A stretch of DNA of 64,000 bases from Candidatus Dormiibacterota bacterium (GTDB lineage Bacteria; Chloroflexota; Dormibacteria; Aeolococcales; Aeolococcaceae). Where the stretch lies: positions 3,697 to 67,696 of the forward strand of contig CAVZQR010000011.1 in assembly GCA_963777445.1 (NCBI GenBank). The letters are read 5' to 3'. The notes beneath the pieces were generated by a model. It did no database searches and was not told the origin of the DNA. It worked only from the letters and a program-made list of their open reading frames with translations. Below are positions 1,971 to 25,292 of this stretch, in pieces. Made by a program: the position numbers and the translations under genes. Positions within the stretch are counted from its first letter, which is position 1; each line of letters opens with the position of its first letter.

Positions 1971-2197
1971 TGGCGAGAGCGCTTCTCCGCCTCGAAATGT
2001 GTGAGCCAGCGCACGTGAGCGTCAGACGCGATCTCACGACGCGACGGAGTAACCGCCATGCACGTCGATAACGCAAAGAATTTGAACGACGAGGGACATC
2101 CTCGATGAAACGACAACGGTGTATCAGCATGATCGCGGTCGCCCCTCAGCACCACGAGGATCGAGAGGGAGGCCCGGCGCCGGAAGGAGAAAATGCC

Positions 2198-6561: not shown

Positions 6562-7419
6562 ATGGACTGGACTCTCATCGTCCAGACGGTGACGGCATCC
6601 GCAGTCGTGCTGATTGTGATCGCCGTGGCGGTGGCGATCGTCCTGTGGATACGCCACACCAGACGGCTGGATGCCACGATGCGAAACCTCTTGGCGGGAA
6701 ACGTAACGTTGCTCGAGGCGTCCGCTCAGCAGGCTGAAGCGGCGCGAGACCTGGCGGTGAAGGCGCACGAGGATCGCGCGTTCGCCACGAGGCCTCTGCT
6801 CATCCTGCTCGACGAGCCCCCGCTGGGCATTCGTGACCAGCCGTGGGCCGCGGTTCGCGTCCGCAACGTCGGCAATGGGCCGGCACTCAACTTCGTTGTG
6901 TGGATGCTTTCCGGAGGCGACCTTTACCGTTCGGCCGGCCCCGAGGCGAATGGATTTTCAGGAGCCCTTCATCTTGCGCCGGGGGACATCTTCGAGCCCG
7001 GACCGTTCCAGAACATGCTGGTCGTCGGTAAGGCACATGGCTACCTCGACCCCGGCTCGGCGGTCGTTGGTGATCATCCGGCGGGCAACCTCACCGCATA
7101 TTGCGGTGACCACCACGGGAATCGCTACCGATTCAACCTGCGCACCGCCGACCCACCCGAGGTCTGGGAGCGCGGGGCGGACGCACCGCCGTGGGCCGGG
7201 GCGTGGGACCCCCGGCTCTCGTCAGAGGAGCCGACGCAGCATGCGGACACCCGAATGCCCCCCATGCTGGAACGGGATGTGACTCAACTTCTTTCGGCGC
7301 TGCGCGACATCCTGGAGCGGCTTCAGGATGTCGGCCTCGAGGAGACCGACGTCCGCCTCACCGGCCGCGCGTCGCGGCCGCATGACGCCGAGCGACGAGG
7401 CAACTTCGACGCCCGCTAG
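6562..7419 (+). CDS. Hypothetical single-TM protein with coiled coil and beta-rich domain
   Basis: N-terminal hydrophobic helix and VRNVGNGPALN motif; start refined to ATG 6562. Confidence 0.6.
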   Translation: MDWTLIVQTVTASAVVLIVIAVAVAIVLWIRHTRRLDATMRNLLAGNVTLLEASAQQAEAARDLAVKAHEDRAFATRPLLILLDEPPLGIRDQPWAAVRVRNVGNGPALNFVVWMLSGGDLYRSAGPEANGFSGALHLAPGDIFEPGPFQNMLVVGKAHGYLDPGSAVVGDHPAGNLTAYCGDHHGNRYRFNLRTADPPEVWERGADAPPWAGAWDPRLSSEEPTQHADTRMPPMLERDVTQLLSALRDILERLQDVGLEETDVRLTGRASRPHDAERRGNFDAR

Positions 7420-8003
7420 CTCAGGCTGCGTTTGCCGAAGATCGAGCGAGCCTCCCTCAAACCGTAAACCACGATCACGAGTCCAGCCAGGGGATCGGCC
7501 CACCACGCGCCCGCGACGGCGTTGAGCAGGAGGCCGAGGAGCACCGCGCTCGACAGGAGTCCGTCGACGAACGTCACCCTGCCCTCGGCAACCAGCACCG
7601 GGTTACCGAGCGCCTTACCGGTCTTCGCCTTCCCCGAGGCCAGACCGAACATCACCGCCGCGGTCATCGCCGTCCAGGCGATCCCGACCCCGCTCGGGCG
7701 AGCATGGTGCGCGGTCGCGAACACAATTGCGGACTGCACCACGAGGTAGATCGCGAGAAGGATGAACGCGGCGCCGATGAGGCTGAGCGCCCGGCGCTGA
7801 CGGGCCTCGCCGCTGCCCGACAGCTCCCAGAGCACGACGGTGCTCGCACCGATCTCGACCAGGCTGTCCAGCCCGAAGCCGGCCAGCGCGACCGATCCTG
7901 CCGCGATGGCGGCCACGCCCAGGACGACGATGCCGACGACGTTCCAGCCGAGGGTCAGGCGTTCCAGGTTCATGCCGCGTTGCAGCAGCGGGACTGAGCT
8001 CAT
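7416..8003 (-). CDS. Short cation-efflux (CDF-like) membrane protein
   Basis: SVALAGFGLDSLVE and WWADPLAGL motifs; no cytoplasmic C-terminal domain. Confidence 0.75.
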   Translation of the reverse strand: MSSVPLLQRGMNLERLTLGWNVVGIVVLGVAAIAAGSVALAGFGLDSLVEIGASTVVLWELSGSGEARQRRALSLIGAAFILLAIYLVVQSAIVFATAHHARPSGVGIAWTAMTAAVMFGLASGKAKTGKALGNPVLVAEGRVTFVDGLLSSAVLLGLLLNAVAGAWWADPLAGLVIVVYGLREARSIFGKRSLS

Positions 8004-8144
8004 TCAGGGAATCGTCCTATGCCATGGTCTGATGAGCGGTCCCGGCGCCTCCGGAGACGTCGGGCCGCCGACGACCACCTCATAGACTTCGATCGCGGCA
8101 AACGTTACGCTAGGGATCTGGGGCACGCTTTGGGGGATGAGGGG

Positions 8145-8351
8145 ATGGACAAGGTACGGCTGTCGCCGGCAGAACAGAACCGCGCCAGGCAGTGGCTTGC
8201 CGACCTGCACGAGGATCTGGACCTGATCCGATATCCCACTCATGTGCAACTCTGGCGCACGGTCGACGAGGCGGCCCGGAGAGCGGACAGTCTCGCGCGC
8301 CTGGAATACGCATTGCGGCTGCCCACTCCGCCGGTGAAACGAATCCGGTAA
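8145..8351 (+). CDS. Small hypothetical protein (68 aa)
   Basis: RBS GAGGGG before ATG 8145; helical, protein-like composition. Confidence 0.45.
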   Translation: MDKVRLSPAEQNRARQWLADLHEDLDLIRYPTHVQLWRTVDEAARRADSLARLEYALRLPTPPVKRIR

Positions 8352-8504
8352 CGGTTGTCCGGCCACACGCAGTCAACCCCTTTCGGCGGCGAGTAATCTT
8401 GCCCCGATGACTTGCACCGCCTTCGGTGTCGCGAACCGGGCGGGTCGGCGTGCTGACAGCCGATGCGGCGGCTCCCTCCGCGGCGCGACTGCGATGGCCG
8501 ACGC

Positions 8505-11500
8505 ATGAAGTGTCCCGCATGCGCGGCCGAGAATCGCGCCGGCATCCGGTTCTGCGTGCAGTGCGGCGCGGGGCTGGCGCGGGCGTGCCCGTCATGCGGT
8601 GCCGCCTTCAACGAGGGTGAGCGATTCTGCGGAGAGTGCGGCGCCTCGCTGTCGGGCGACTCCGCACGCTCGAGGCAGGCCGTCGGGCAATCCCAGGTCG
8701 AAACTTCGTCGCGCGTTGCAGAGCGTCGCCACGTCACGGTGCTCTTCGCGGACCTCGTCGGTTTCACCCCATTGTCCCAGCAACGCGACGCGGAGGACGT
8801 GCGCGAACTCCTCAGCCGCTACTTCGATACCGCTCGGACGATCATCACCCGCTACGGCGGTACGGTCGAGAAATTCATCGGCGACGCGGTGATGGCTGTC
8901 TGGGGTGTTCCGGCCGTCCAGGAGAATGACGCCGAGCGAGCGGTGCGCGCCGCCCTGGAATTGGTGGACGCCGTGGCGGCCTTCAGCGACGAGGTCGGCG
9001 CACCCGGGCTGCGCGCCCGCGCGGGTCTGCTGACGGGGGAGGTTGCCATCAACCTCGGCGTCGCCGGCGAGGGGATGGTCGCGGGCGACCTGGTGAACAC
9101 CGCGGCGCGTGTCCAGTCGGTCGCGGAGCCGGGAACGGTCTACGTCGGCGATTCCACGCGACGAGCCACCGAGGCCGCGATCATCTACGACGACGCTGGC
9201 GTGCACGAGCTCAAGGGCAAGCCCGAACCCGAGCGTCTCTGGCGCGCGCGGCATGTGGTGGCTGCAGCGGGCGGTGCACTGCGACCGACGGGGCTGGAAC
9301 CGCCCTTTGTCGGGCGCGACCGCGAGCTGCGCCTGCTCAAGGAGTCATTGCACGCGACGGGGGAGGAGCGCACCGCCCGACTGCTCTCGATCGTCGGCCT
9401 TGCGGGTGTCGGCAAGTCGCGATTGGCGTGGGAATTCTTCAAATACGTTGATGGCGTCACCGAGACGATCTGGTGGCACCGGGGCCGCTGCCTCGCGTAT
9501 GGCGAGGGAGTCGCCTACTGGGCGCTCAACGAGATGGTGCGCATGCGTGCGGGCATCGTCGAGAACGAACCCCCCGAGACTGCGCGTGAGAAGTTGCGCC
9601 GCACCGTCGAGGAATTCGTCGAGTTGGGCGAGGAGCGTCGCTGGGTGGAACCACGGCTCGCCCATCTCGTTGGTCTCGAGGAGCGAGCGGCCGCCGATCC
9701 GCGAGATCTCTACGCCGCGTGGCGGTTCTTCTTCGAGCGCCTCGCAGCGCAGCAGCTCACCGTTCTGGTGTTCGAGGATCTGCAGTGGGCGGATAGCGGC
9801 CTGCTCGACTTCATCGAGTACCTCCTGGAATGGTCGCGCAGCTCGCCCATCCTGGTGGTGACGCTGGCGCGCCCCGAGCTGGCGGAGCGCCGCCCCGGAT
9901 GGGGAACGGGCAAGCGGGGCCTGACCGCCCTCTACCTCGATCCGCTCTCCTCCGACGCGATGTCGCAGTTGCTCGCGGGGATGGCGCCGGGGCTGCCTGA
10001 CGATCTGACCGGGCGCATCCTTGACCGCGCTGCGGGCATCCCGCTTTACGCCGTCGAGACGGTGCGCATGCTGGTTGACCGCGGGATGCTCGTGGAGAAG
10101 GAGGGGACGTTCCACGTCGAGGGCTCGCTGGAGTCGCTCGAGGTTCCCGAGACACTGCACGCGCTCATCGCGGCACGCCTCGACAGCATCGGCGCTCCCG
10201 AGCGCCAGCTTCTCCAGGACGCCGCGGTGCTCGGCAAGTCGTTCACCGCCAGCGGCCTGCGCGCCGTGACCACGCTCCCCGACGACGCAGTCGAGCCATG
10301 CCTCGCGAGCCTGGTCAACAAGGATCTGCTCTCCATCCAGTCGGACCCACGATCGCCGGAGCGCGGCCAGTACGTCTTCGTCCAGGACCTGGTGCGCAGC
10401 GTGGCCTACGGGACCCTGGCACGCCGTGATCGCAAGGCGCGTCACCTCAGTGCGGCGGCCTACCTCGAAAGCTCATGGAGCGAGGAGGAGGGCGTTGCCG
10501 AGGTCATCGCCGCGCACCTCGCCGAGGCGTACGAAGCCGATACGGAAGCCGCTGACGCGTCAGGGCTGCGCGACCGCGCGCGCGACGCGCTCGTTCGGGC
10601 CGGCGACCATGCCGCCTCGCTCGGGGCGGCGGAGTCGGCACAGCGGTACTACGAGCGCGCCCTCGAGCTTGCCGCTCCTGATGACCGCGCCGGCCTGCAC
10701 GTCCTTGCCGGACAGATGGCGTGGCTGCGTGTGGACATCCCCGATGCGCGCCAGCACCTCGAGGAGGCGGTCGTCCTGCATATGGCCGCGGGACGCGTCG
10801 GCGCGGCAGCGCGCGCCTCCATCACCCTCGGCGAGCTCGACAGCCACGAGCTCCAGATGGAGCAGGCTGCCGACCGCATCGAGCGGGCATTCGTGACGCT
10901 GTCCGAGTCGCGGTCGGAAGGTGACGAGTACCAGGCAGATCTCGCCAGGGTGGCCGCAGAGGCCGGCCGCCGCCTCTACTTCGCGGGACGGTCCGCGGAC
11001 ATCGCGATGGAGCGTGTGGAGCTCGCCCTCGGCATCGCCGAGCGAAGTGGCGATGCCGAGGTGTTCTGCCAGGCGATCAACACCAAGGGTCTGATCCTCG
11101 GAGCGCGGGGCCGTCGCGAGGAGGGCCGGGCGCTCATCCGCTGCGCCCTCGACCACGCGCTGGCGTCGCATCTCCACGAGGCGGCGCTCCGCGCCTACAA
11201 CAACCTCGCAGCCGACGTGCAGGCCTCGGATCCAGCGTCGGCCTCAGAGTACGTGCGGGCTGGGATCGCGCTTTCGAAGCTGATGGGGCGCCGCAGGCTG
11301 GAATCGATGCTCACCAACGGGGAGGTGCCGATTCTCATCGACCTCGGCCGCTGGGACGCCGCCATCGTGATCACGTCCGATTTCCTCGAGTCGCCCGAGC
11401 GCTGGGTGGTGGAGTCCGAGCTCGGCTCCGAGGTGGTCTATGGCGTCTGGATCCATCTGTGGCGCGGCGAGCTCGCCGAGGCGCGCCATCTGATCGATCG

Positions 11501-12089
11501 TACGGCAGACCTCTCCGAACGGGCGTCGACCGAAGCCCTGCTGATCCATGACGCGGCCAGGGCTGCCTTGTTGCGTTTCCAGGGGCGCGACGCCGAAGCC
11601 TTGCGGGTCGTCGCCGACACCATCGAACGGGTCAACGACGGGGCCGATTTTCTCGATGTCACCCGCTGGGTCTTCGTCGAGCTGGCCGAAGCCGCATTCG
11701 CCGCAAATGACCTCCAGACCGTCCGGCGCCAGCTCGATGCGGTCACCAGGCGCCTCTCGCCAACCCTGGCGCCGATTCTGCATGCGCAGGCGCGTCGATT
11801 CCGAGCGCGCCTCGCCGCCCTCGAGAATCGCGACGACGAGGTGGTCAGCAACGCGCAGGCGGCCATCGACGCCTTTCAGCAGCGCCAGATGCCCTTCTGG
11901 CTGGCGGTGACTCGCCTCGAGCTCGGCGAGTGGATGGTGCAGCACGGGAAGGCGGACGGCGGAGACAGACTGCTCGCCGATGCCCGGACTGCCTTCACCG
12001 AGCTCGGCGCCACCCCGTGGATCGAGCGGGTCGACGCAGCCGTGCACGGTGGGGGCGCGACGAGCGCGGACACGGCGCTCCCTGCGTGA
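8505..12089 (+). CDS. Double Zn-ribbon / class III nucleotidyl cyclase / STAND AAA ATPase / TPR protein (copy 1)
   Basis: Four CxxC pairs; VLFADLVGFT, EKFIGDAVM, GDLVNTAARV; Walker A GLAGVGKS, Walker B VFEDLQWAD; TPR-like tail. Confidence 0.92.
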   Translation: MKCPACAAENRAGIRFCVQCGAGLARACPSCGAAFNEGERFCGECGASLSGDSARSRQAVGQSQVETSSRVAERRHVTVLFADLVGFTPLSQQRDAEDVRELLSRYFDTARTIITRYGGTVEKFIGDAVMAVWGVPAVQENDAERAVRAALELVDAVAAFSDEVGAPGLRARAGLLTGEVAINLGVAGEGMVAGDLVNTAARVQSVAEPGTVYVGDSTRRATEAAIIYDDAGVHELKGKPEPERLWRARHVVAAAGGALRPTGLEPPFVGRDRELRLLKESLHATGEERTARLLSIVGLAGVGKSRLAWEFFKYVDGVTETIWWHRGRCLAYGEGVAYWALNEMVRMRAGIVENEPPETAREKLRRTVEEFVELGEERRWVEPRLAHLVGLEERAAADPRDLYAAWRFFFERLAAQQLTVLVFEDLQWADSGLLDFIEYLLEWSRSSPILVVTLARPELAERRPGWGTGKRGLTALYLDPLSSDAMSQLLAGMAPGLPDDLTGRILDRAAGIPLYAVETVRMLVDRGMLVEKEGTFHVEGSLESLEVPETLHALIAARLDSIGAPERQLLQDAAVLGKSFTASGLRAVTTLPDDAVEPCLASLVNKDLLSIQSDPRSPERGQYVFVQDLVRSVAYGTLARRDRKARHLSAAAYLESSWSEEEGVAEVIAAHLAEAYEADTEAADASGLRDRARDALVRAGDHAASLGAAESAQRYYERALELAAPDDRAGLHVLAGQMAWLRVDIPDARQHLEEAVVLHMAAGRVGAAARASITLGELDSHELQMEQAADRIERAFVTLSESRSEGDEYQADLARVAAEAGRRLYFAGRSADIAMERVELALGIAERSGDAEVFCQAINTKGLILGARGRREEGRALIRCALDHALASHLHEAALRAYNNLAADVQASDPASASEYVRAGIALSKLMGRRRLESMLTNGEVPILIDLGRWDAAIVITSDFLESPERWVVESELGSEVVYGVWIHLWRGELAEARHLIDRTADLSERASTEALLIHDAARAALLRFQGRDAEALRVVADTIERVNDGADFLDVTRWVFVELAEAAFAANDLQTVRRQLDAVTRRLSPTLAPILHAQARRFRARLAALENRDDEVVSNAQAAIDAFQQRQMPFWLAVTRLELGEWMVQHGKADGGDRLLADARTAFTELGATPWIERVDAAVHGGGATSADTALPA

Positions 12090-12174
12090 CCATCGGGACC
12101 GACGGCGTCTCGCGGCTCTGCCAATTCGCAGACACCTTCCCGAATCTGATCGTCGAGCGGCGCTCGCGCTGCAT

Positions 12175-13950
12175 TCAGTCCGACTCGGTCTGCCCGAACG
12201 TGAGCGATGCGGAGGGGTGGGTCCTGGCCAGCCGTGACTGCGCTCGTCCCAGGGCCGTTGGCGAGAGATTTGCCACCGTCATCGCTTCGACGAAATCGGT
12301 CCCGTTGACCCGGTAGATGCTGCAGGGCGTCAGCGCCGTCACCGTGGCAGTCCGCGGACGATGCTCGAGGAGGCCGATCTCGCCGAAGTAGGTGGGCGGC
12401 GTGAGCACACCGAGTGACCGCACCACGCCGGCCTCGCCCGCGGCAAACACCTCGACCTCGCCGTCGGTGAGGACGAAGAAATCATCCGCGTCGGCGCCCT
12501 CGTGTATGAGCACCGTTCCGGCGCCGATGCGCTCCTCGACTGCGGACCTCGCAATGCGTTCCAGGGCGGCGCGGGTTGCACCGGCGAAGATGTCGAGCGT
12601 CTGCAGGACCGCTATACGCGGTTCAATCGCGGACAGCTCCCGGACCGCTCTGGTGTCCAGAACCCGGATCCAGGGGTATGCGGCGGCGGTCAGCGCGGGG
12701 ATTGCACATCCCATGATCAACAGGGTCGTGTTCAATCCCACGCTGCCGAGCAGGATTGGCATGAGCAGCGCGCCGAGGGAGATCGCCCCGAGCACCAGCG
12801 CAAAGAAGACACCGAACACGCGGGCGACGACGTCGGGGTGGACGAGACGTTGCAGCGCGGTGATCGCGAGCACATCGACGATGATCGTCCCGGCCCCTCG
12901 TATCACCTCCAACAGGAACGCGATCCACGGCGAATGCACAACCGTCAAGAGCGCGGTGGGAAGGCAGTACAACGCCATTCCGATCACGATGATGGCACCG
13001 AGGCGGCGCGCCGCGGCGATGCGATTCATGAATCCCGCCATCAGGATTCCCCCGACTCCCAGCGCGGCAAGGAGGTATCCGTAGCCGCTGCTGCCGGTTC
13101 CCAGTTGGTCCCTGCTCACCACGACGAAGAGCACCGTGTCGGTTCCGTAGACGAAGCTCGCGAGGATGCTGAAGCCCGCCAGCAGCGTTACTGGCGGCGA
13201 TGACACGAACGCCCGGAAGCCGGCGGCCATCTGCTTGAGTGGTCCGGCAGCGCCCCCCTCGGTGATGTCGGAAGCGCGGCTGCGGGTGCGGATCCGGCTG
13301 ACGACCACAGCCGAGAATCCGAAGGTTGCGGCGTTGAGGGCGAACACGACGGCCGGAGGGCTGAACAGGAGCAGCAGGCCGGCAATCGCGGGTCCCACGA
13401 TGATCGAGAGATTCTCGACCGCCGATTGGGCGCTGTTCGCGGCGGCGAGATGCTCCTCACCGACCACCGCCGGCGTGGTTGCCCGGGCCGCCGGATCGTA
13501 TGACGATGTCGTCACCGACGTCAGCGCGGCCAGCACGATCGCCAGGACAACGGGGCCGTTCAGCACGGCGACGATCGCGAGGGCGGTCTGAAGGAGGAGC
13601 GCGCCGGAGTCGAGCGTCACCATGAGGCGTACGCGTTCGATTCGGTCAGCGATCAACCCGCCGAACGGGCTGGCCACGAGTGCCGTGAGGAATCGAGTCA
13701 TCGACGCCGCGGCCACCCATGCCGGTGAGTGCGTGGCGTTGAAGACGAAGACGACGAGGGCGACGTTGTAGGCCCACGATCCGCTCATCGAGATCGTCAG
13801 ACCGCTGAAGAGCAGCCGGTAGTCGCGGATGCCGAACAGCGAGCGGTAGCCGACCCGCGGTGTCGCGTCGCCGATCCGGCGTCCGGTGATCCGGGCCACC
13901 ACGCGGCGTCGGATCGATGGCTTCCTCTCGATTGCGCCGTCAGTCGTCAC
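12175..13950 (-). CDS. MFS transporter fused to C-terminal cyclic-nucleotide-binding domain
   Basis: MFS motif A GGLIADRIER and about 12 TM; cNMP cassette GEVEV...YFGEIGLLEHRPRTATV. Start approximate (GTG 13950 or 13965). Confidence 0.88.
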   Translation of the reverse strand: MTTDGAIERKPSIRRRVVARITGRRIGDATPRVGYRSLFGIRDYRLLFSGLTISMSGSWAYNVALVVFVFNATHSPAWVAAASMTRFLTALVASPFGGLIADRIERVRLMVTLDSGALLLQTALAIVAVLNGPVVLAIVLAALTSVTTSSYDPAARATTPAVVGEEHLAAANSAQSAVENLSIIVGPAIAGLLLLFSPPAVVFALNAATFGFSAVVVSRIRTRSRASDITEGGAAGPLKQMAAGFRAFVSSPPVTLLAGFSILASFVYGTDTVLFVVVSRDQLGTGSSGYGYLLAALGVGGILMAGFMNRIAAARRLGAIIVIGMALYCLPTALLTVVHSPWIAFLLEVIRGAGTIIVDVLAITALQRLVHPDVVARVFGVFFALVLGAISLGALLMPILLGSVGLNTTLLIMGCAIPALTAAAYPWIRVLDTRAVRELSAIEPRIAVLQTLDIFAGATRAALERIARSAVEERIGAGTVLIHEGADADDFFVLTDGEVEVFAAGEAGVVRSLGVLTPPTYFGEIGLLEHRPRTATVTALTPCSIYRVNGTDFVEAMTVANLSPTALGRAQSRLARTHPSASLTFGQTESD

Positions 13951-14101
13951 ATGCAGATGTGTCACCCGAGGGTGGGGGTGGGATTCACCGGCGAAAGCGT
14001 ACTCGCGGCTCGTGCCATCTGCTCGGCGGCGCTCGGCGCCCGCGGACGGCAGGCCGGTGAGCGTTGCGAACGCCGTCGGAGCAGGCCGATACTCTGCGCA
14101 C

Positions 14102-14947
14102 ATGCGGTTGCGCCTCTGCGGGACGCGAGGGTCGACGCCGGCGCCCGGCGTCGATTTCGCCCGTTATGGGGGTCAAACGTCATGCGTGGCGGTGCTTTCG
14201 GATGACGGCCAGTGCCGGCTCATCCTCGACGCCGGCACCGGGTTGCGCCGGCTCCCTGCCGCACTGGGTGGCCAGCCGTTCACCGGCACCATCCTGCTGA
14301 CCCACCTCCACTGGGATCACACCCACGGGTTGCCGTTCTGCCCCGCCGTGGACAACCCCGACGCGCGCACCACGCTGTACATCCCCGAACAACCGGGCGG
14401 TGGCGCCGAGGAGATCCTCGCCCGCGCGATGTCACCGCCGCATTTCCCCATCCGACCGAGCGAGATGCGCGGATCGTGGGAGTTCCTGCATCTCGCGCCC
14501 GGCCGGCACCGGATTGAGGGCTTCGACGTCCTGGCGCTGGAGATTCCGCACAAGGGCGGGCGAACCTTCGGGTACCGGGTTTCGGACGGGCGGCGGGCAA
14601 TCGCATACATGCCGGACCACGCACCGAACGCTCTCGGTCCCGGCGCCCACGAGTTCGGTCCGTATCACGATGCGGCGATGGAGTTGACCAGGGGAGTGGA
14701 CATCCTCTTGCACGATTCGCAATACACCAGTGAGGAGTTCCCCGCGCGAGCACACTTCGGGCACTCCAGCATCGATTACGCGGTGGGCCTTGCCGAACAT
14801 GCCGGTGTCCAGCGGCTGGTGCTCTTCCATCACGACCCGTGGCGATCGGACGCGCAGCTGGACGCCATCATTGAGCACTGGTCGGGCGCCTCGCTCCCGG
14901 TGACCGCGGCGGTCGAATGGGACCTTCTCGACGTCGACAGCCCCTGA
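14102..14947 (+). CDS. MBL-fold metallo-hydrolase, putative cyclic-nucleotide phosphodiesterase
   Basis: GTRGS..RYGGQTSCV, DAGTG, THLHWDH (HxHxDH), PDH, GHS, FHHDP. Confidence 0.85.
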   Translation: MRLRLCGTRGSTPAPGVDFARYGGQTSCVAVLSDDGQCRLILDAGTGLRRLPAALGGQPFTGTILLTHLHWDHTHGLPFCPAVDNPDARTTLYIPEQPGGGAEEILARAMSPPHFPIRPSEMRGSWEFLHLAPGRHRIEGFDVLALEIPHKGGRTFGYRVSDGRRAIAYMPDHAPNALGPGAHEFGPYHDAAMELTRGVDILLHDSQYTSEEFPARAHFGHSSIDYAVGLAEHAGVQRLVLFHHDPWRSDAQLDAIIEHWSGASLPVTAAVEWDLLDVDSP

Positions 14948-15035
14948 TGCCGGCAGCTTTGGCATGTGACCACCGTCGAAGGCTCGGAATCCGCATGGTT
15001 GAGCGCCGCCCGCGGAGAAACGTACCCTTGACGGC

Positions 15036-18000
15036 GTGATCTGCCCTGCCTGCGCTGCCGAGAACCGACCCGGCATGCGCTTCTGCGGCCACTGCGGGAC
15101 GTCACTCAGCCGCGAGTGTCGCGCCTGCGGCGCCAAGAATGACGCCGGCCAGTTGTTCTGCGGGCAGTGCGGAGCGAAGCTCGAGGGCGAGTCTGTCGAG
15201 CGCGAACGGTCGTCGCCGCTCCCTGCGGCGCCGGGCCGGCTCCCCGCCGAACCGTCGCGGCTCGCCTCCGAGCGCCGTCACGTCACCGTGCTGTTCGCCG
15301 ACCTCGTCGGCTTCACCTCGCTGTCGGAGCAGCGTGACGCCGAGGATGTGCGCGAGCTGCTCAGCGAATACTTCGCCACGGCTCGCACGGTTATCGGCCG
15401 CTATGGCGGCACCATCGAGAAGTTCATCGGCGACGCTGTGATGGCGGTGTGGGGCGTCCGCGCCATCCACGAAAACGACGCGGAGCGCGCCGTCCGAGCG
15501 GCCCTCGAGCTCGTCGATGAGGTGGCGGCGTTCGGTGAGCATGCGGGGATCCCCGGGCTCCGAGCCCGAGCCGGCGTGCTCACCGGTGAAGCCGCGGTCA
15601 ACCTCGACGTCGAAGCCGACGGCATGGTCGCGGGAGACCTGGTGAACACCGCGAGCAGGGTGCAGTCGGTTGCGGAGCCGGGCAGTGTCTTCGTCGGCGA
15701 GAGCACTCGAAGCGCGAGCGAGGCCGCGATCGAGTATCACGACGCCGGCACACATCAGCTGAAGGGCAAGCCTGAGCCACTGCGGCTCTGGCGGGCCGCC
15801 CGCGTGATCGCGGGGGCCGGTGGGGCGCTGCGCCCCACCGGCCTCGAGCCACCCTTCGTCGGCCGGGACCGTGAACTGCGGTTGATGAAGGAATTCCTCC
15901 ACGCCACGTCGGCGGAGGGGAGAGCACGGTTGCTCTCGATCGTCGGCCTCGCGGGCGTGGGCAAGTCCAGGCTGGCCTGGGAGTTCTTCAAGTACATCGA
16001 CGGGCTCACGGAGACGATCTGGTATCAGCGCGGCAGATGCCTCGCGTACGGCGAGGGGGTCGCGTTCGCGGCGCTGACCGAGATGGTCCGGATGCGAACC
16101 GGCATTGTGGAGAACGAACCGCTGGAGAGTGCTCGGCAGAAACTGCGCCGGAGCGTCGAGGAGTTCATCCTCGACGGCGAGGAGCGCTCCTGGGTGGAAT
16201 CGCGTGTCGCTCATCTCCTCGGGCTCGAGGAGCGTGCCGGTGCGGACCCTCGTGATCTCTACGCAGCCTGGCGGGTCTTCTTCGAGCGCATCGCCCTGCA
16301 GAACACGACGCTGCTGATCTTCGAGGACCTGCAGTGGGCGGACAGTGGCCTCCTCGACTTCATCGAGTATCTGCTCGAGTGGTCGCGAAACTCCCCGATC
16401 ATGGTGGTGACCCTTGCGCGGCCCGAACTCGGCGAGCGCCGTCCCGGATGGGGCACAGGCAAGCGCGGCCTCACGTCACTCTTCCTCGAACCACTTCCGG
16501 CGGAGGCCATGGCGGAGCTGCTCAGCGGCATGGTGCCGGGACTCCCGCAGGATCTGCGCGCGCTCATCCTCGACCGTGCCGCCGGCGTCCCGCTGTATGC
16601 GGTTGAGACCGTGCGCATGCTCATCGACCAGGGGTTGCTCCTCGAGGAGCTCGGCACGTATCGCGCGCAGGGATCGCTGGATGCACTCGAAGTTCCGGAG
16701 AGCCTGCACGCGCTGATCGCGGCGCGTCTCGACAGCCTCGCGCCGTCCGAGCGGTCACTGCTGCAGGATGCCGCCGTCCTCGGCAAGTCGTTCACCGTAC
16801 CTGCGTTGAGCGCCGTGACCAACATCAACGAATCCGAGGTCGAGGCGGTGCTCACCGCGCTGGTCGGGAAGGACCTCCTCTCGATCCAGTCGGACCCGCG
16901 TTCTCCAGAGCGCGGCCAGTACGTCTTCGTGCAGGACCTGATCCGCAGCGTGGCTCACGGGACCCTGGCCCGCCGGGAGCGCAAGCTGCGCCACCTCGCG
17001 GCCGCCACGTATCTGGCGAGTTCGTGGGCTGAGGAAGAGGAGATCACCGAGGTCGTCGCCGCCCACCTGGTGGACGCGTACGACGCCGACCCCGCCGCCG
17101 CGGACGCCCCGGAAATACGCGACCGCGCCCGGCTTGCGCTCGTGCGTGCGGCCGATCACGCTCGATCGCTCGGCGCGGCTGCGTCGGCCCAGCGCTATTA
17201 CGAGCATGCGCTCGAGCTGAGCGGCGACGACGAGACGCGAGCCGATCTGCATCAGAAAGCGGGCCGATCCGCCCGGCTTCAGGGCCGAGCCACTGAGGTG
17301 AGAACGCACTATGGGGCCGCCCATGCTCTCTACGCCGCCACGGGACGGCCATTGGGCCAGGCAACGACACTGTCCGAACTTGCCACCGCCGAGTTCCAGG
17401 ACGGGAACCTCGCTGGAGCGGTGCAACTCACCAGGGACGCACTTGCCATCGTTCCGGAATCAGGCACGGATGATGAGCACCAGGAAACCTTGGCGGGCAT
17501 CGAGGCGCGTCTCGCGAGGTTCATGTACTTCAACAGCGAATACGAAGCCGCGCTCCCGCACGTGGAGCGCTCGCTACAGATTGCGGAGACCGAGGGTCTG
17601 TGGGAGGTCCTCTGCCAAGGGCTGGATACCAAGGGCTCCATCCTGGCTGCGCGCGGACGCCGCGCGGAGGCCGAGATCCTCATCCGCGGTGCGCTCACCG
17701 TTGCGCTTGAACACGAGCTCACGGAGCGCGCTTCGGGAGCCTGCATCAGCCTGGCCACCACCCTCGAGGAGGACGACCGTCTGGAGCCCTCCCTCGAGCT
17801 CTACGCCCAGGCGGAAGCGCTCTTGCAACGGCTGGGAAACCGCCCGAACGCCGCCGGCGCCCGGCTGAATCGCATCCAGGGGCTTCTCGAGCTGGGGCGC
17901 TGGGATGAGGTCGCGGCAATCTTCGCCGACTATCTCGAGGCCGACGCTGAAGACCTCGGATCTCGTATCTGGCCGGGGGCTGTCGCGATCAATGCGGCGT

Positions 18001-18639
18001 GGCTCTACCTTCTCCGCGGCGACACACCCTCGGCGCGGCGTCTGGTCGAGGCGGGCGCGCCGATCGTCGAGCACGCTCAACTCGAGATGCGTTCCCAGCA
18101 CCAGGCCGCGCTCGCCGGCGTTGCCAACGCCCAAGGGGACCATGTGCTCGCGCTGCTCACCGCGGAGCCGGTGCTCCGCGCCTGCATCGACGAGTCCTTT
18201 CCGGTGGGAATGAGGTCGGCACTCATCGAGGCGGTGGAGGCCGCCTTCCAGCTGGGCCAGGTTTCCAAGGTCGAGGAGCTGCTCCAGCTCGTTCGCGACA
18301 GCTTCCGCCCCGGGCGCCAGCCGTCGGTTGACGCTCACATCCTGAGGTGGGAGGCACGCATTGCGGCGCAGCGCGATGACCTGGAGGGCGCCCGGAGCAA
18401 ATTCGCGGCCGCGATCGAGGCGTTCACCAAATTGCAGCGCCCCTTCTGGATCGCGGTGACGCGTTGTGAGTTCGGCGAGATCCTGGTCGCTCAGGGCCGC
18501 GAGCACGACGCGGACGAGCTGCTGACCAGCGCCCGCGCCACCTTCGAACAGCTCGGCCGCAACGCCATGGCTGCACCGGGCGCGATCAGCCGTGCGGCGA
18601 GTGGGTGCCGGAATGGAGCCCGCGACCCTGGCGCAGTGA
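15036..18639 (+). CDS. Double Zn-ribbon / class III cyclase / STAND ATPase / TPR protein (copy 2), apparent +1 frameshift near 18557
   Basis: Same motifs as copy 1. Removing one C at 18557-18558 restores LGATPWL (copy 1 has LGATPWI) and a stop at 18637-18639; as given the ORF runs to 18665. Confidence 0.9.
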
Positions 18640-18661
18640 CAACGTCGCCTGCCGCGCGCGG

Positions 18662-19399
18662 CTAGCGGAAACGCTGAGCGTCCGAGGCGGCGTAGCGGGT
18701 CACGACGGCGTCGACGCCCGAGGTGCGCTCGACCAGCTCGGTGACGTCCGCCGCGGCCGCGGCGGGAATGGCGCAGGTGAGCGTGTGTGCTCCCATACCG
18801 GTGCGAGCGCGGCTCAGGGCGCATCCAACGGAGGCTGCCACGCGGCCGTGCTCATGAGCCACCGCGATGATGTGGCACTGGGGCTTCCCCTCGATCCGCA
18901 GCTCCGGAATCGCGTCGCTCATCACCATCATCCCCTGCGCGTTGAGGCGCAGCAGGATGACGCTCGGGTCCACCGGCGTGTCGGCGAGTGGCCCGTAGGT
19001 GATCAGCGCAGGTCGCTTGGTCACCGCCGGGATACCGGGAAACGCTTCCGGGCTCACCCAGCCTGACTCGACCAGGGCGGCGACATCGGCATTCGCGGCC
19101 GCCTCCTCGAGACTGAGCAGGCCGTGGGTGTAGCTGCCCACGCTGCAGTTGGCGTGATCCGCCGGCTCGGTGCTGAACGTGCGCTCGGCCGCATGCATCC
19201 AGAACACGCAGCCGGCCGCCACTCGCCCGGTGCGTCCGTCCGGTGTCGGCGCCGGCATCGCCGTATCGAACGCGGGGACGTCATCGCGCGGCGCGTCGAG
19301 GAACGTGATCGCGATTGGCGCAGCCAGCGGGTGCAGCGCGTTGGTGAGGCGTTCGGCCAGTTCCGGCCATGAGGTGCGGGGGCGAGGCGTGCTGGTCAC
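18662..19399 (-). CDS. DUF169-family Cys-rich protein
   Basis: PIAITF, AAGCVFW, DHANCSVG, GKPQCHII, SVGCALSRARTG. Confidence 0.75.
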   Translation of the reverse strand: MTSTPRPRTSWPELAERLTNALHPLAAPIAITFLDAPRDDVPAFDTAMPAPTPDGRTGRVAAGCVFWMHAAERTFSTEPADHANCSVGSYTHGLLSLEEAAANADVAALVESGWVSPEAFPGIPAVTKRPALITYGPLADTPVDPSVILLRLNAQGMMVMSDAIPELRIEGKPQCHIIAVAHEHGRVAASVGCALSRARTGMGAHTLTCAIPAAAAADVTELVERTSGVDAVVTRYAASDAQRFR

Positions 19400-19435
19400 G
19401 CGCCAATGATGCCTGACGGTCCCGTCGAAACGGCC

Positions 19436-20836
19436 TCAGGCGCCGAGCCTGACACCGGCACCGGCGAGTTGAGCCGTCGTGGGCTCCGCGCAGCAGAACC
19501 AGGGCTCGCTCAGCCGAGGCGGGGCGTCCCGTTCCGGCGGCAGCGCGCTGCCGGCGTCCGGCCAGGGGAGCCCCGCGGCGGCAGCCGCGACGGCGGTGAT
19601 CCCGCGGATCGCCGCGTGCGTGGACCGCGGCGCCACCCCTGCATCCGCATCCGCCGCGACCAGTTCCGCGATCTCCGCCTGGAGCGCGTCCATCGCCGCA
19701 TCGGGATGCTGCCAGAGATGGCTGAAACCTGCGGGATCGTAGCCGCGCAGGTGCTCGCGCATCTCCGGCAAGCTCAGGAGCAGCGAGCCCGGTGGCACCA
19801 GCAGGCGGATGCTCAACTGGACGGGGTCGACGCTGTCGATGAGATCGTTGGCGGCGATCATGTCGAGCAGGTCGAGCTGGTCGCCGAGCGTGCTCCAGGG
19901 CGTGAACGGCAGGAGGGAGGGCCGCAGCTCGACCCCCAGCGAGCGGCAGATGCGGAGTGCGGTGAGGACGTCGTCAGCCGAGTGTCCCTTGGCGAGGAGC
20001 TCGAGCACACGGGGGCTGGTGGACTCCACGGCCGAAACGATGAAGAGCAGGCCAAGCTCGCGCAGCTGGGCGATCACCTCTGGGTGCTCGAGGATGTGCT
20101 CCACCTTGGTCGTGATGTCGAAGGTGAGCTCCGGGCAGCGCTCGTGCACCGCGCGGACGACAGCGGTTGCGTGCGGCACGGCATTCAGAAAGTCCGGATC
20201 CCCGAAGGTGAGGTGGCGCATGCCCTCTTCCCAGAGCCGGACCACGTCGTCCACGAGTACCTCCCGCTGCCAGACGCGAATCCGACCGTCGTACACCGCG
20301 GGGACCGGGCAGTGACGGCAGCGGTGCACGCAGCCGCGCGTCGCCTCCACATAGCCCGTCAGCCGCTCCTCGCCGTCGACACGGAGCCGGGTATAGCGAT
20401 CGAGTGGCGGCAGCAGGTCGCGAGCGGGCAGGAGGAAGCGAAGCCGGTCGAGCACGACCGCCCGCGAGCCGGCGGCGCCGTTGGCGATGGCGACCAGCGC
20501 CTGCTCGTACTCACCCCCAACGAACGCATCGACGAGGCCAGCTTCGAGCGTCGGACCGCAGAGTGGAGCGTAGAGGCCGAAGAGCACGATGCGCACGTGC
20601 CCCCCGCGACGGGCGCGGATAGCCTGCGCCGCGGGAACGGCCATGCGCATCGCGGTGTGCATGGGGACCGCGATCGCCACCAGGTCGGGGGCGTCGAGAT
20701 CGGCCTCGCCGATGGTCTGGACAGAGAGGTCGACCGCGCGGACGTCATGACCCGACGCGCGCAGAAAGGCCGCGGCCGACGCGACGTGAAGTGGCTGATG
20801 GCCGAGCTCGTAGCACGAGACCAGGAGAACCCTCAC
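19436..20836 (-). CDS. CUAEP/CCAEP-tail radical SAM protein (Cys form)
   Basis: LVSCYELGHQP N-terminus, RGCVHRCRHC (CxxxCxxC), C-terminal PRLSEPWFCCAEP encoded by TGC TGC. Confidence 0.85.
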   Translation of the reverse strand: MRVLLVSCYELGHQPLHVASAAAFLRASGHDVRAVDLSVQTIGEADLDAPDLVAIAVPMHTAMRMAVPAAQAIRARRGGHVRIVLFGLYAPLCGPTLEAGLVDAFVGGEYEQALVAIANGAAGSRAVVLDRLRFLLPARDLLPPLDRYTRLRVDGEERLTGYVEATRGCVHRCRHCPVPAVYDGRIRVWQREVLVDDVVRLWEEGMRHLTFGDPDFLNAVPHATAVVRAVHERCPELTFDITTKVEHILEHPEVIAQLRELGLLFIVSAVESTSPRVLELLAKGHSADDVLTALRICRSLGVELRPSLLPFTPWSTLGDQLDLLDMIAANDLIDSVDPVQLSIRLLVPPGSLLLSLPEMREHLRGYDPAGFSHLWQHPDAAMDALQAEIAELVAADADAGVAPRSTHAAIRGITAVAAAAAGLPWPDAGSALPPERDAPPRLSEPWFCCAEPTTAQLAGAGVRLGA

Positions 20837-23190: not shown

Positions 23191-25242
23191 TTAGCTCCCG
23201 GCGACCAACCCCGCGGAGCTCTCCGGATCCCCTGAGACGTCGGCCCGGCCCGACACCAGGTCGAGCTCATGGCGCGCGAGCAGCCGCAATGCCGCAATCA
23301 GCGGGGTCTCGTCGGTGTGTGGCTCGGCGATATCGAGAGGAACGTCGAGCCGCGCCACGCCGGTGGAACTGTGGCGGACGGTGCCACCGAGGCCGCGCGC
23401 CAGGCGAAGCACATCATCGTTCTCCCACTGGACGTAGCCGCAGAACCTGTGGATACCGTTCTGAAGGGCGATGAGGGCGAGCGCCTCGAGCAACACCGTT
23501 GCGATGCCGCGGTGCTGATACTCATCTATCACGGTGACCGCGGCTTCGGCGCACTCGGGTTCGTCAGCGAGGCGGATGTATCGGGCGATGGCCACGCCCG
23601 GCTGGTCCGGCGCGTCGACATCCCATGCGCCGAGCGCCATGTGATTCGTGTAGTCGATCGTCGTGAGATAGCGCAGCATCGAGTCGCTCAGCGACGCCGG
23701 TGGATTGAAGAAGCGGCGCACCCGCGACTCCGCTGACAGGCGCTCGAATCCCCGGACGATTGCGCCCTTGTCGGCCGTGACGATCGGGCGGATGCGAATC
23801 CGCCTGCCGTCGCGAAGCGCGACTTCCGTTGTGCATGCCGCGATCCGTGGGTCATCGGTGCTGGCAATCCCCGTCACCTCGGGCGGAGCCGGACGCGCGT
23901 GCCGGTTCACCCGCGCGACGCATTCAAGGCGAAGGTGCTCGAGTTGCTCCGAAACGATAACCGGCATCGGCTCAGCACCCTGCAGGCGTCGTGCACTCTC
24001 GGGGAGGTTGTCGATGTCCGTGTTGAGCCTGTCGCGCAGGGTCGCGAGCGACTCACGCTCGACGATCCGCTCACCGGCGATCATCACCGGGACGAGGAGC
24101 GGCTCGCGTTCCGCGATGTCCTCCTCGCGAAGTCCCAGAACATCCCCACCCAGGTGCAGGTTGCGGAAGACCTGCTTGGCGCCGGGGAGGCTGGCCTTCC
24201 CGGCCGACAGCTTGAGCACCGGTCTGCCGGCGTAGGCGACGAGCTTGTAGGCGCTCTCGAGTGACGGGGCGTCAGCCGACACCGCCATCTTCGTGCCGAC
24301 CCCGAATGCGTCAACGGGGGCGCCGCTCTGGACCAGCTCTGCGATGTCGTACTCGTCGAGCCCCCCACTCACAACGATCTGTGCGCTCGGACATCCTGCC
24401 GCATCGAGCTGCCGGCGGACCTGCCGCGCAAGCGCGTCGAGGTCACCGCTGTCCAGGCGCACGGAAAACGCATCGCCGAGGCCTCGTTCCTTGGCGGCGC
24501 GGATGGCTGATTCAACGCCCTGCTCGGTGTCGTACGTGTCGACAAGGAAGGTCGGGTGATCTGGGAAGTCTTCCGCGAACGCGCGGAACGCCTCGTGTTC
24601 ATCCTCGAAGGCTTCGATGTACGAGTGCGCCATGGTGCCCGAGGTCGCGAGCTCATACTGCTGTGCCGCCGCCACGTTGCTCGTCGCCGAGAAGCCCGCG
24701 ATCGCGGACAGCCGTGCAAGTGCCATGGCGGCGTCGGTGCCATGCGTGCGTCGGAAGCCGAAGTCGATCAGCGTCCGGCCGCGACTCGCGAGCCGGCACC
24801 TTGCCGCCTTGCTCGCGATCGCCGACTGGAACGTCACCTGGTTGAGCAGGTAGGTTTCGACCACCTGGGCTTCGGCGATTGGCGCCGTCACCTCAAGCAG
24901 CGGCTCGTTCTCGAACACGATTCGCCCTTCCGGCACCGCCCAGACGTCACCGGTGAACCGCAGACGTGCGAGGGCGCGCCGGTCGGCAGGCGTCAGGCCC
25001 GCAACCCCGGCCAGGTATATGCGCGCAGCCCGATCGGCACCGAACCCGCTGAGAAAGGTGAGGCAGTCCTCCAGGCCCGCGGCGACCAGAAAGCCTCGCC
25101 CCGGCGGCAACCGGCGCACGAACAGGCTGAACGTTGCCATGCCGTCCATGCCTCGGCGGAGGTAGCTCGCGGCCATTCGCAGCTCGTACGAGTCGGTGAG
25201 CAACAGCCCGCCGACTCTCTTCAAAGGCATTGCAGCGTTCAT
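23191..25242 (-). CDS. pncB: Nicotinate phosphoribosyltransferase fused to C-terminal GNAT acetyltransferase
   Basis: LLTDSY, DFGFRR, TSNV, GTMAHS, LVDTYD, VRLDSGD, SGGLDE, FGVGT, YKL; then LRDGRRIRIRPI...[11 protein letters not shown]...AEAAVTVIDEYQHRGIAT. Confidence 0.88.
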   Translation of the reverse strand: MNAAMPLKRVGGLLLTDSYELRMAASYLRRGMDGMATFSLFVRRLPPGRGFLVAAGLEDCLTFLSGFGADRAARIYLAGVAGLTPADRRALARLRFTGDVWAVPEGRIVFENEPLLEVTAPIAEAQVVETYLLNQVTFQSAIASKAARCRLASRGRTLIDFGFRRTHGTDAAMALARLSAIAGFSATSNVAAAQQYELATSGTMAHSYIEAFEDEHEAFRAFAEDFPDHPTFLVDTYDTEQGVESAIRAAKERGLGDAFSVRLDSGDLDALARQVRRQLDAAGCPSAQIVVSGGLDEYDIAELVQSGAPVDAFGVGTKMAVSADAPSLESAYKLVAYAGRPVLKLSAGKASLPGAKQVFRNLHLGGDVLGLREEDIAEREPLLVPVMIAGERIVERESLATLRDRLNTDIDNLPESARRLQGAEPMPVIVSEQLEHLRLECVARVNRHARPAPPEVTGIASTDDPRIAACTTEVALRDGRRIRIRPIVTADKGAIVRGFERLSAESRVRRFFNPPASLSDSMLRYLTTIDYTNHMALGAWDVDAPDQPGVAIARYIRLADEPECAEAAVTVIDEYQHRGIATVLLEALALIALQNGIHRFCGYVQWENDDVLRLARGLGGTVRHSSTGVARLDVPLDIAEPHTDETPLIAALRLLARHELDLVSGRADVSGDPESSAGLVAGS

Positions 25243-25292
25243 CCCACTTGGTCGTGATCGGCGTCGGTCGTCAAAAAGTTAGCCTCGGTATC

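Follow-up and report, generated by a model that had tools for sequence, protein, structure and literature searches.

The stretch of DNA considered here, referred to as the window, comprises 64,000 nucleotides of contig CAVZQR010000011.1 from a Candidatus Dormiibacterota bacterium of soil. Between 8.5 and 18.7 kb it carries four long, codon-biased open reading frames (ORFs). They encode two paralogous proteins that join a class III nucleotide cyclase to a STAND-type NTPase (cyclase-STAND proteins, here CYC1 and CYC2), a major facilitator superfamily (MFS) transporter fused to a cyclic nucleoside monophosphate (cNMP)-binding domain, and a metallo-beta-lactamase (MBL)-fold hydrolase. Both cyclase-STAND copies flank the transporter/MBL pair, and tblastn (E <= 1e-5) detected no further copy in the window. 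On balance, these genes probably form a chromosomal cyclic-nucleotide signaling cluster, in which receptor-cyclases would supply a cNMP to the transporter and the MBL enzyme would reset the signal. An earlier note, made from the sequence alone, had described four genes with these domains at essentially the positions listed below, and Pfam scores above cut-off and motifs read in the translations bear this out.

8505..12089, plus strand: CYC1, zinc ribbon / class III cyclase / AAA_16 STAND NTPase / tetratricopeptide repeat (TPR)-like C-terminal region, 1194 aa (Pfam, translation, paralogue comparison)
8511..8642, plus strand: CYC1 double zinc ribbon (PF12773 DZR, 38.2 bits; CxxC pairs visible in the translation)
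8727..9227, plus strand: CYC1 class III cyclase catalytic domain (PF00211 Guanylate_cyc, 78.2 bits)
9303..9860, plus strand: CYC1 AAA_16 (STAND) NTPase (PF13191, 78.3 bits; Walker A GLAGVGKS, Walker B-like VFEDLQWAD)
10665..12086, plus strand: CYC1 C-terminal helical-repeat (TPR-like) sensor region (37% identity to the CYC2 TPR region)
12175..13950, minus strand: MFS_3 (DHA3 / EntS-like) transporter with C-terminal cNMP-binding domain, 591 aa (Pfam, NCBIfam, homologue lengths)
12280..12531, minus strand: cNMP-binding domain with intact phosphate-binding cassette, FGEIGLL...PRTATV (PF00027, 69.4 bits)
12772..13812, minus strand: MFS membrane domain (PF07690, profile positions 1-346 of 347)
13951..14101, no strand: MFS-MBL divergent intergenic region with two conserved short boxes (alignment with L001-L009, among the related loci described below)
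14102..14947, plus strand: MBL-fold hydrolase (Lactamase_B_2, PF12706), candidate cNMP phosphodiesterase, 281 aa (Pfam, 72.7 bits)
14300..14320, plus strand: THLHWDH metal-binding motif (translation; fits [T/S]HXHXDH)
15036..18665, plus strand: CYC2, CYC1 paralogue of the same architecture (Pfam, translation; DZR 40.1 bits)
15273..15773, plus strand: CYC2 class III cyclase domain (PF00211, 79.6 bits)
15852..16409, plus strand: CYC2 AAA_16 NTPase domain (PF13191, 71.7 bits)
17157..17705, plus strand: CYC2 TPR region, MalT-like (PF17874 TPR_MalT, 47.2 bits; PF13424 TPR_12, 53.7 bits)

These scores are to be read against Pfam cut-offs of 27.3 (DZR), 21.9 (Guanylate_cyc), 32.6 (AAA_16), 30.1 (TPR_12), 45 (TPR_MalT), 27 (MFS_3), 33.4 (MFS_1), 27.5 (cNMP_binding) and 27 (Lactamase_B_2). 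Comparisons among genomes draw on 49 related loci, taken from the best 80 of 641 transporter relatives returned by a genome scan with a 15-sequence MFS-cNMP alignment as the query. These loci come from mutually related genomes and were searched with the window proteins by tblastn. Counts of cyclase-STAND and MBL neighbors cover the recovered flanks of the 49 loci, whereas the domain content of neighboring genes was established by Pfam in 12 representative loci. The named homologues of the transporter and of the MBL protein belong to Candidatus Dormibacterota metagenome bins.

The cyclase domains of CYC1 and CYC2 look active, as predicted from their retained catalytic residues. Both read D-K-D-M-N-R at the key catalytic positions, and the segments FADLVGFT, IGD and VNTAAR align with the two metal-binding aspartates and with the transition-state asparagine and arginine of solved cyclases. 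The earlier note had envisaged inactive cyclase domains as an outcome that would speak against its proposal; as far as sequence can tell, D, K, D, N and R are all kept in both proteins. Among 61 cyclase copies from the window and the loci, 56 read D-K-D-[M/L/S/I]-N-R, two more are truncated at the first of these residues, and three are cyclases of other types. The closest solved relative is 2w01 (E = 1e-22, 84.5 bits), and in this search of solved structures the window cyclases lie much nearer to canonical adenylyl and guanylyl cyclases than to the low-ranked cyclase chains.

Walker A (GLAGVGKS) and Walker B-like (FEDLQWAD) motifs are readable in both proteins. Their Pfam listings at E <= 0.01 contain no NACHT or NB-ARC match, and the NTPase is of the AAA_16 type. 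The predicted order of domains, with a P-loop NTPase between an effector domain and C-terminal repeats, is the make-up of AAA_16-type STAND proteins. The description of the two cyclases as NLR-like in the earlier note therefore holds in the broad STAND sense but not in the narrower one of a NACHT or NB-ARC protein. The repeats of CYC1 give a weak Pfam signal of their own (SNAP, E = 8e-4), and their assignment is supported by alignment to CYC2.

CYC1 and CYC2 share 59% identity overall, and this value is unevenly distributed: it reaches 80% in the cyclase domain and 82% in AAA_16 and falls to 37% in the C-terminal repeats. Orthologues of CYC1 are found at 73-82% identity in L005 and L010-L021, and those of CYC2 at 80-93% in L001, L003, L005 and L006. 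The same gradient appears between loci. For example, five of the six closest CYC1-like homologues show 87-97% identity in the cyclase and AAA_16 domains and 56-68% in the TPR part, with AAA_16 alone at 90-97% in five of the six compared and at 82% in L031. Across twelve compared homologues, the corresponding ranges are 74-97% for the cyclase and AAA_16 domains and 43-73% for the TPR part. This pattern of sequence identity indicates strong constraint rather than an arms race.

The 3' end of CYC2 (18540-18665) carries a one-base frameshift relative to its orthologues, which could be an assembly error. The ortholog-like tail (…ATPW…LAQ) is encoded in the +1 frame, with its stop at 18639, whereas the present frame runs to 18665; only about the last 30 residues are touched. 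The end coordinate of 18639 given in the earlier note thus agrees with the ortholog-like tail but not with the CYC2 frame as it stands. Split or truncated cyclase-STAND copies were also seen elsewhere (L003:8571-9035, L005:5397-5762, L006:11840-15377, L014:2795-9962 and L020:5383-9600), and these are either decaying paralogues or bin assembly errors.

The transporter scores 101.6 bits against MFS_3 (PF05977), the 'transmembrane secretion effector' or EntS family, and 99.6 bits against MFS_1. Two NCBIfam models match below their cut-offs, TIGR00900 at 164.7 versus 319.6 bits and EntS at 92.4 versus 324. Its ORF is open to 14103, and the start was placed at 13950, giving 591 aa, because homologues (78-96% identity) run from 574 to 591 aa. 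The transporter is present in all 49 loci at 53-89% identity to the window copy. The claim that it carries an intact cNMP cassette proved sound: the cassette aligns with the domains of PKA and PKG, and G523, E524, G526, R533 and A535 show no variation among 42 homologues, some with as little as 33% identity. Fusions of this kind are widespread, with 907 cluster representatives at E <= 1e-30. Seven loci (L015, L016, L028, L030, L039, L040 and L041) have titles naming Saccharimonadales, Acidiferrales, Chloroflexia or Chloroflexi. Their transporters are 59-81% identical to the window copy and nest among Dormibacterota in the tree, and the bins are probably mislabeled.

The MBL gene is transcribed divergently from the transporter gene, 151 nt away, and CYC2 begins 88 nt after it. 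Its divergent orientation and an HxHxDH motif had both been noticed earlier; the motif reads THLHWDH, and the metal ligands H68, H70, D72 and H73 do not vary among 27 sequences. The divergent intergenic region holds two short conserved boxes, one (…AGTATCG…) lying some 10 nt from the start of the MBL gene and the other reading …GAGTACGCTTCCGC-TGAAT…. Both are kept in L003, L006 and L009, where the region is down to about 90 nt. These boxes may represent promoters arranged back to back, in which case the MBL transcript would be leaderless. No CRP-type palindrome is conserved in the intergenic alignment of the window with L001-L009, which was inspected by eye only.

The evidence that joins the cyclases to the transporter is their linkage in Dormibacterota genomes. 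A cyclase-STAND homologue lies in the recovered flanks of 38 of the 49 loci. It is within 300 nt of the transporter gene in 25, and in four more only the MBL gene lies between them. The arrangement itself is variable. The cyclase-STAND gene is convergent with the transporter in the window, L003, L005 and L006; directly upstream on the same strand and operon-like, with gaps of 14-122 nt, in most of L010-L036; and downstream on the same strand in L010, L017, L018 and L042. Copies per locus range from zero to at least three. A quick IQ-TREE (LG+G4) phylogeny of the transporter shows cyclase adjacency in all of its major clades, with at least five changes, a count that omits six short-flank loci. 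Eight queries from the window flanks gave a single match in the 49 loci, a GT87 gene in L005. Because the flank genes are not shared, the core genes appear to stay together while their surroundings change.

The MBL gene follows a narrower distribution, adjoining the transporter in 10 of the 49 loci and in two arrangements. It is divergent and 87-227 nt upstream in L001-L009, as in the window, and convergent and 14 nt downstream in L032. Because L032 falls outside the clade (SH-aLRT 98) that unites the window with L001-L009, MBL adjacency requires two changes on the tree. The full order cyclase-transporter-MBL-cyclase recurs in L003, L005 and L006, and clear orthologues of both CYC1 (82%) and CYC2 (83%) are found together only in L005. 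The conserved core is thus the pair of cyclase-STAND and MFS-cNMP genes, whose coupling as writer and reader is well supported, and the MBL gene joins it repeatedly as an optional third member. The co-localization that the earlier note proposed to look for in other genomes accordingly exists for the cyclase and the transporter, whereas for the MBL gene it is confined, among the 49 loci, to one clade and L032.

Other genes accompany the transporter in the remaining lineages. Matches by tblastn place an S8 peptidase gene near it in 17 of the 49 loci and a GAF gene in 15, plus a weak 27% match in L005. Among the sampled loci, clade B and L040 have the transporter near a stand-alone cNMP-binding protein of 120-140 aa, an overlapping S8/GAF pair and a CRP-type regulator, and L040 additionally has a response-regulator cyclase. 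None of the loci that bear S8/GAF genes contains the MBL gene, so the four genes of the window are best seen as one lineage's version of a larger, variable cNMP gene neighborhood. The claim of a self-contained four-gene module is not supported by this comparison, given the ten loci with an adjacent MBL gene, the variable number of cyclases and the S8 peptidase neighbors. A small S8 gene that overlaps the GAF-domain gene was itself seen across the range L010-L024, L026, L040, L041 and L048 (e.g., L012:11714-14037 and L022:11711-14622).

Relatives of the MBL protein outside Dormibacterota also lie beside cNMP genes. Those at 58-66% identity rank below the Dormibacterota set, and the 11 among them with a source name are all from Actinomycetota. 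Miltoncostaea oceani (Actinomycetota, Thermoleophilia; L050) encodes an MBL homologue of 43% identity on an 816-kb replicon. The gene shares 4 nt with the beginning of an MFS-cNMP gene, whose product is 31% identical to the window transporter and has confirmed MFS_1, MFS_3 and cNMP_binding domains. Genes for an S8 peptidase, a GAF protein and an 88-aa protein come before the MBL gene on the same strand, and a cyclase-AAA_16-protein kinase gene, with the kinase after AAA_16, lies 5 kb upstream. The S8/GAF pair of M. oceani (L050:7291-8684) resembles the Dormibacterota pairs at 46-51% and 44-47% identity. The 88-aa protein (L050:8826-9092), encoded between the GAF and MBL genes, is helical and weakly matches Frankia_peptide, a ribosomal peptide model (27.2 bits versus a cut-off of 48).

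Searches of PLSDB plasmids by tblastn yielded the M. oceani replicon and, for the MBL protein on rhizobial plasmids, 250 records at 31-37% identity. The MBL gene overlaps a CHASE2-cyclase gene in Ensifer, with NHLP bacteriocin export genes alongside. In Mesorhizobium it lies 7 nt after a gene for a cNMP-binding protein, which itself follows an ABC transporter gene, and a cyclase gene is 5 kb away. A Guanylate_cyc protein is encoded within 8 kb of the MBL gene in six of ten rhizobial loci (L051, L053, L055, L058, L059 and L060), which are mutually related and were chosen non-randomly from the top 25 of the 250 records. In L052 a gene for a cNMP-binding protein lies at a distance of 5 kb, and no cyclase was found among the ORFs scanned in L054, L056 and L057. 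DUF3095 occurs in eight of the ten. In L053-L060 (e.g., L053:10877-15358), the MBL gene belongs to a conserved block that also encodes a ferredoxin-cyclase fusion, DUF3095, glycosyltransferases, an ABC transporter of about 900 aa and a polysaccharide deacetylase.

Taken with the linkage that persists through rearrangements in Dormibacterota, the position of the MBL gene beside cNMP genes in Actinomycetota and Alphaproteobacteria upholds the earlier view that cyclase, cNMP-binding transporter and MBL enzyme belong together. It may further be proposed, tentatively and with less than even confidence, that a three-part unit recurs across at least three bacterial phyla. It would consist of a class III cyclase, controlled in the window by an NLR-style STAND-TPR receptor, of a transporter that reads the nucleotide through a cNMP-binding domain, either fused to it or encoded next to it, and of an MBL phosphodiesterase dedicated to this signal.

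The mechanism envisaged for the cluster begins with CYC1 and CYC2, each of which would sense a different cue through its diverged C-terminal TPR region. The AAA_16 STAND NTPase would then switch or oligomerize, and the N-terminal class III cyclase domains would thereby be brought together as active dimers that produce a cNMP. Given the lysine at the substrate-specifying position, this nucleotide would most likely be cAMP. It would bind the C-terminal cNMP-binding domain of the DHA3 / EntS-like MFS exporter and alter transport. Finally, the MBL-fold enzyme would hydrolyze the cNMP and reset the signal. The analysis shows the domains, the intact residues for catalysis and ligand binding and the gene linkage, whereas every biochemical step is inferred, from the nucleotide made and activation by oligomerization to the direction and substrate of transport and the activity of the MBL enzyme.

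Several observations weigh against this signaling cluster as drawn, and they concern the linkage, the nucleotide and the hydrolase. No cyclase-STAND homologue is present in the recovered flanks of 11 of the 49 loci; among these, L007, L023, L026, L041 and L048 have at least one truncated flank, which is very short only in L023 and L048. Thirty-nine loci are without an adjacent MBL gene. The genome scan with the 15-sequence transporter alignment returned no locus outside Dormibacterota, and the rhizobial loci were sampled in the non-random manner described above. The canonical pair of lysine and aspartate in adenylyl cyclases is not found: the lysine is present, but the second substrate-specifying position, an aspartate in canonical adenylyl cyclases, holds methionine in both window cyclases and methionine, leucine, isoleucine or serine in their paralogues. 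For this reason, the cyclase product is not readable from sequence. Neither this methionine nor the double zinc ribbons figure in the earlier note.

Because the 49 loci come from related genomes, their shared synteny is also partly inheritance. Taken to its limit, this point would make the genes neighbors by descent only, with no joint function, a reading that agrees with the origin of all 49 loci in one phylum, with their variable flanks and with the 11 loci that have no cyclase-STAND gene in the recovered flank. Such an account can hardly be correct, however, since adjacency outlasts changes in order and strand, is present in all major clades despite its repeated changes of state, and holds the core genes together though flank genes are unshared. 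Pairs of MBL and cNMP genes, moreover, recur in other phyla.

The assignment of the MBL protein as a cNMP phosphodiesterase meets further difficulties of this kind. NF041851 ('cyclic nucleotide-degrading phosphodiesterase') is the only NCBIfam model that matches it end to end and does so in 27 of 27 family members, but the score of 40.5 bits (about 40 across the family) is far under the cut-off of 400. A fold search with an AlphaFold model of the protein (pLDDT 85.9) ranks YhfI (6kns) first at E = 7.3e-13, and RNase Z at 9.2e-13, followed by ELAC1 and PhnP up to 1e-11, is as close to the predicted fold as YhfI. The PDB sequence search with the MBL family profile (E <= 1) retrieved neither YhfI nor Apyc1. 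Single-sequence and profile searches of the PDB gave only local matches to RNase Z-family chains, with PqqB also listed.

These results allow a second account, in which cyclase and transporter are indeed coupled while the MBL enzyme acts on an exported compound or its precursor, on nucleic acid or on a 2',3'-cyclic phosphate. The equal closeness in fold and sequence to RNase Z, ELAC1 and PhnP, with PqqB listed too, speaks for this possibility, as do the names given to homologues at JGI ('phosphoribosyl 1,2-cyclic phosphodiesterase' or 'ribonuclease BN'). The M. oceani gene, which comes after that for the 88-aa protein with its weak match to Frankia_peptide and is close to an S8 gene, would fit a peptide-processing and export operon, and the rhizobial copies lie among glycosyltransferase and polysaccharide deacetylase genes. 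Against it stand the low scores of the specific models (RNase Z model TIGR02651 at 52.3 bits versus 292.95, PhnP at 21 versus 272), the lack of phn genes among the window neighbors and the fit of the motif to the signature of atypical class II phosphodiesterases. In three phyla, the recurring neighbors are instead cyclases and cNMP-binding proteins. This account is unlikely, though far from negligible. A function in cNMP hydrolysis is the best, though no more than plausible, reading of fold, motif and neighborhoods.

The MBL protein gives no equivalog-level match to RNase Z: TIGR02651 scores far below its cut-off, and its matches are confined to residues 189-250, or about 60 C-terminal residues.

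A third account concerns what the transporter carries. The cluster could regulate export of a peptide or secondary product, in parallel to NHLP/TOMM bacteriocin systems with their kinase/cyclase-ATPase-TPR regulator and their transport-associated cNMP-binding proteins; this would refine the signaling cluster rather than rival it. Such a role would suit the match of the transporter to MFS_3, a secretion-effector family, and the S8 peptidase genes beside it in 17 of the 49 loci and in M. oceani. It would also suit the MBL-cyclase pair of Ensifer beside NHLP bacteriocin export genes. TIGR03896, a model for bacteriocin-type transport-associated cNMP-binding proteins, weakly matches the cNMP-binding domain, and TIGR03903 aligns to the cyclase-ATPase-TPR part of CYC1 and CYC2 with scores of 219 and 207 bits, which stay under its cut-off of 705.75. 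However, the window shows neither a precursor peptide nor a modification enzyme. The Frankia_peptide score of the M. oceani 88-aa protein remains below cut-off, and this protein has no tblastn match (E <= 1e-3) in the window or the Dormibacterota loci. Regulation of product export is accordingly rather improbable.

The remaining account is immunity, one of the roles that the earlier note had suggested. Pycsar defense combines a class III-type cyclase with a membrane protein that has a cNMP-binding domain, and Apyc1 is a phage MBL-fold cNMP nuclease. By analogy, the TPR regions of the window proteins would sense phage proteins, the cyclases would raise a cNMP alarm, the MFS protein would collapse the membrane potential in abortive infection, and the MBL enzyme would prevent self-activation. 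The pairing of a cyclase with a cNMP-binding membrane protein is indeed analogous. In PADLOC, the cyclase domains are hit by PycC models (66.4 and 64 bits) and the cNMP-binding domain by PycTIR/effector models (40.1 bits). The TPR parts of the tandem paralogues have diverged while their enzymatic domains are conserved, and the MBL fold resembles Apyc1 (7t28), which ranks 45 in the fold search. The PADLOC matches are nevertheless limited to generic domains (PycC over 134-136 residues), and the cyclases lie far nearer to canonical enzymes than to low-ranked chains. Known Pycsar effectors are small membrane proteins of two to four helices, whereas the effector here is a full MFS transporter, conserved in every recovered locus at 53-96% identity across the phylum.

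The surroundings point the same way. The rest of the window is made up of ordinary chromosomal genes, among them those for Lon protease, UvrD helicase, glycogen enzymes, isocitrate/isopropylmalate dehydrogenase, nicotinate phosphoribosyltransferase (NAPRTase), Dyp peroxidase and a hybrid histidine kinase. PADLOC gave no match for 19 of 20 neighboring ORFs, and the single match is an ArsR-type helix-turn-helix protein hit by the model Csa3. The S8 peptidase neighbors in 17 of the 49 loci and the GAF proteins, small cNMP-binding proteins and CRP-type regulators in the 12 sampled loci are typical of physiological signaling. An anti-phage system is therefore very improbable, and the immunity proposal is not borne out. 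The cluster looks like ordinary physiological signaling rather than virus defense and does not appear to be a new immune system.

Some features of the window stand apart from the cluster. Its G+C content is 64-72% per 2-kb bin, and an Rfam scan of positions 7000-20000 gave no match. A promoter and terminator consensus scan found no promoters and six terminator-like sites versus 3.6 expected, none of them at a gene end. Both scans were uninformative. Positions 1-1041 encode the C-terminal end of another STAND-type regulator, with MalT-like TPR repeats and a LuxR/GerE helix-turn-helix domain, which is too dissimilar to the cyclases for a tblastn match. Positions 2105-3808 encode a protein of 567 aa that has five Kelch repeats (243 bits), a feature uncommon in bacteria, and positions 23191-25278 encode a nicotinate phosphoribosyltransferase with a fused C-terminal GNAT acetyltransferase domain.

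Each part of the cluster has a precedent in cyclase-ATPase-TPR proteins, in MFS-cNMP fusions and in MBL-fold cNMP phosphodiesterases. The literature searched, which covered neither subscription journals nor supplements, contained no published description of a genetic pairing of cyclase-STAND and MFS-cNMP genes, and no functional study of a cNMP-gated MFS transporter was found in it. The earlier note, which knew of no such arrangement, is thus not contradicted. If the proposed three-part unit is real, it would represent an undescribed mode of second-messenger control over membrane export and would reveal a new, widespread clade of bacterial cNMP phosphodiesterases. The tandem receptor-cyclase paralogues of Dormibacterota, with their diverged TPR sensors, would allow several signals to converge on one exporter. 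Cyclase-ATPase-TPR proteins and cNMP-fused transporters are common in genomes, and almost none has an assigned input, output or partner. Their repeated pairing offers a concrete circuit, framed by the nucleotide made, the gating of export and the product exported. It also gives a genetic argument that an MBL clade common to Actinomycetota and rhizobia belongs to cNMP turnover, and it would provide the first functional handle on signaling in Dormibacterota, a phylum known almost wholly from metagenomes.

Comparison with known systems helps to place the cluster. The Mycobacterium tuberculosis proteins Rv0386, Rv1358 and Rv2488c combine a class III cyclase, an ATPase, TPR and a LuxR helix-turn-helix domain, and Rv0386, like the window cyclases, has non-canonical substrate-specifying residues. 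CYC1 and CYC2 resemble this group in their order of domains, with a class III cyclase at the N terminus and then an AAA_16/STAND-type NTPase and TPR. They differ from it by their N-terminal double zinc ribbon, by the missing LuxR domain and by their linkage to a cNMP-binding transporter. Because they have no LuxR DNA-binding domain, their output can only be the nucleotide. A second likeness is to TIGR03903, the TOMM system kinase/cyclase fusion, to which the cyclase-ATPase-TPR portion aligns over about 670-770 residues. CYC1 and CYC2, unlike that family, have no kinase domain and score far below 705.75, whereas the M. oceani relative does have a kinase. Regulators of the TIGR03903 kind are described beside exported-peptide clusters, with mention of the large Ser/Thr kinase (PMC2887384).

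The closest known parallel for the MBL enzyme is the group formed by Rv1339, CpdA of Corynebacterium glutamicum and YhfI. The motif [T/S]HXHXDH is given as the signature of these atypical class II phosphodiesterases (PMC9293780), and Rv1339 lowers cAMP in mycobacteria in vivo (PMC9293780; PMC9995111). The window enzyme shares with this group the PF12706 fold, the motif and a length of about 270-280 aa, and YhfI is its top match in the fold search. It differs in its genetic linkage to a cNMP-binding transporter and STAND cyclases, and its sequence profile misses YhfI in the PDB. With respect to the transporter, Rv3239c and Rv3728 of M. tuberculosis carry cNMP-binding domains. The MFS-cNMP fusion is therefore not new as an architecture, as the 907 cluster representatives also attest. 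Both mycobacterial proteins are listed as MFS efflux proteins (PMC6300501).

The resemblance to phage defense and its countermeasures is more distant. Unlike Apyc1, the MBL gene is chromosomal rather than phage-borne, and PF23023, the Apyc1 family, is absent from the Pfam results of 27 of 27 family members scanned; precomputed matches to it exist for four of 120 listed MBL homologues and for 20% of the members of one Atlas cluster. The cluster resembles Pycsar in pairing a cyclase with a membrane protein that carries a cNMP-binding domain. It differs from Pycsar in that its PADLOC matches are to generic domains only, its context is one of conserved housekeeping genes and its effector is a full transporter.

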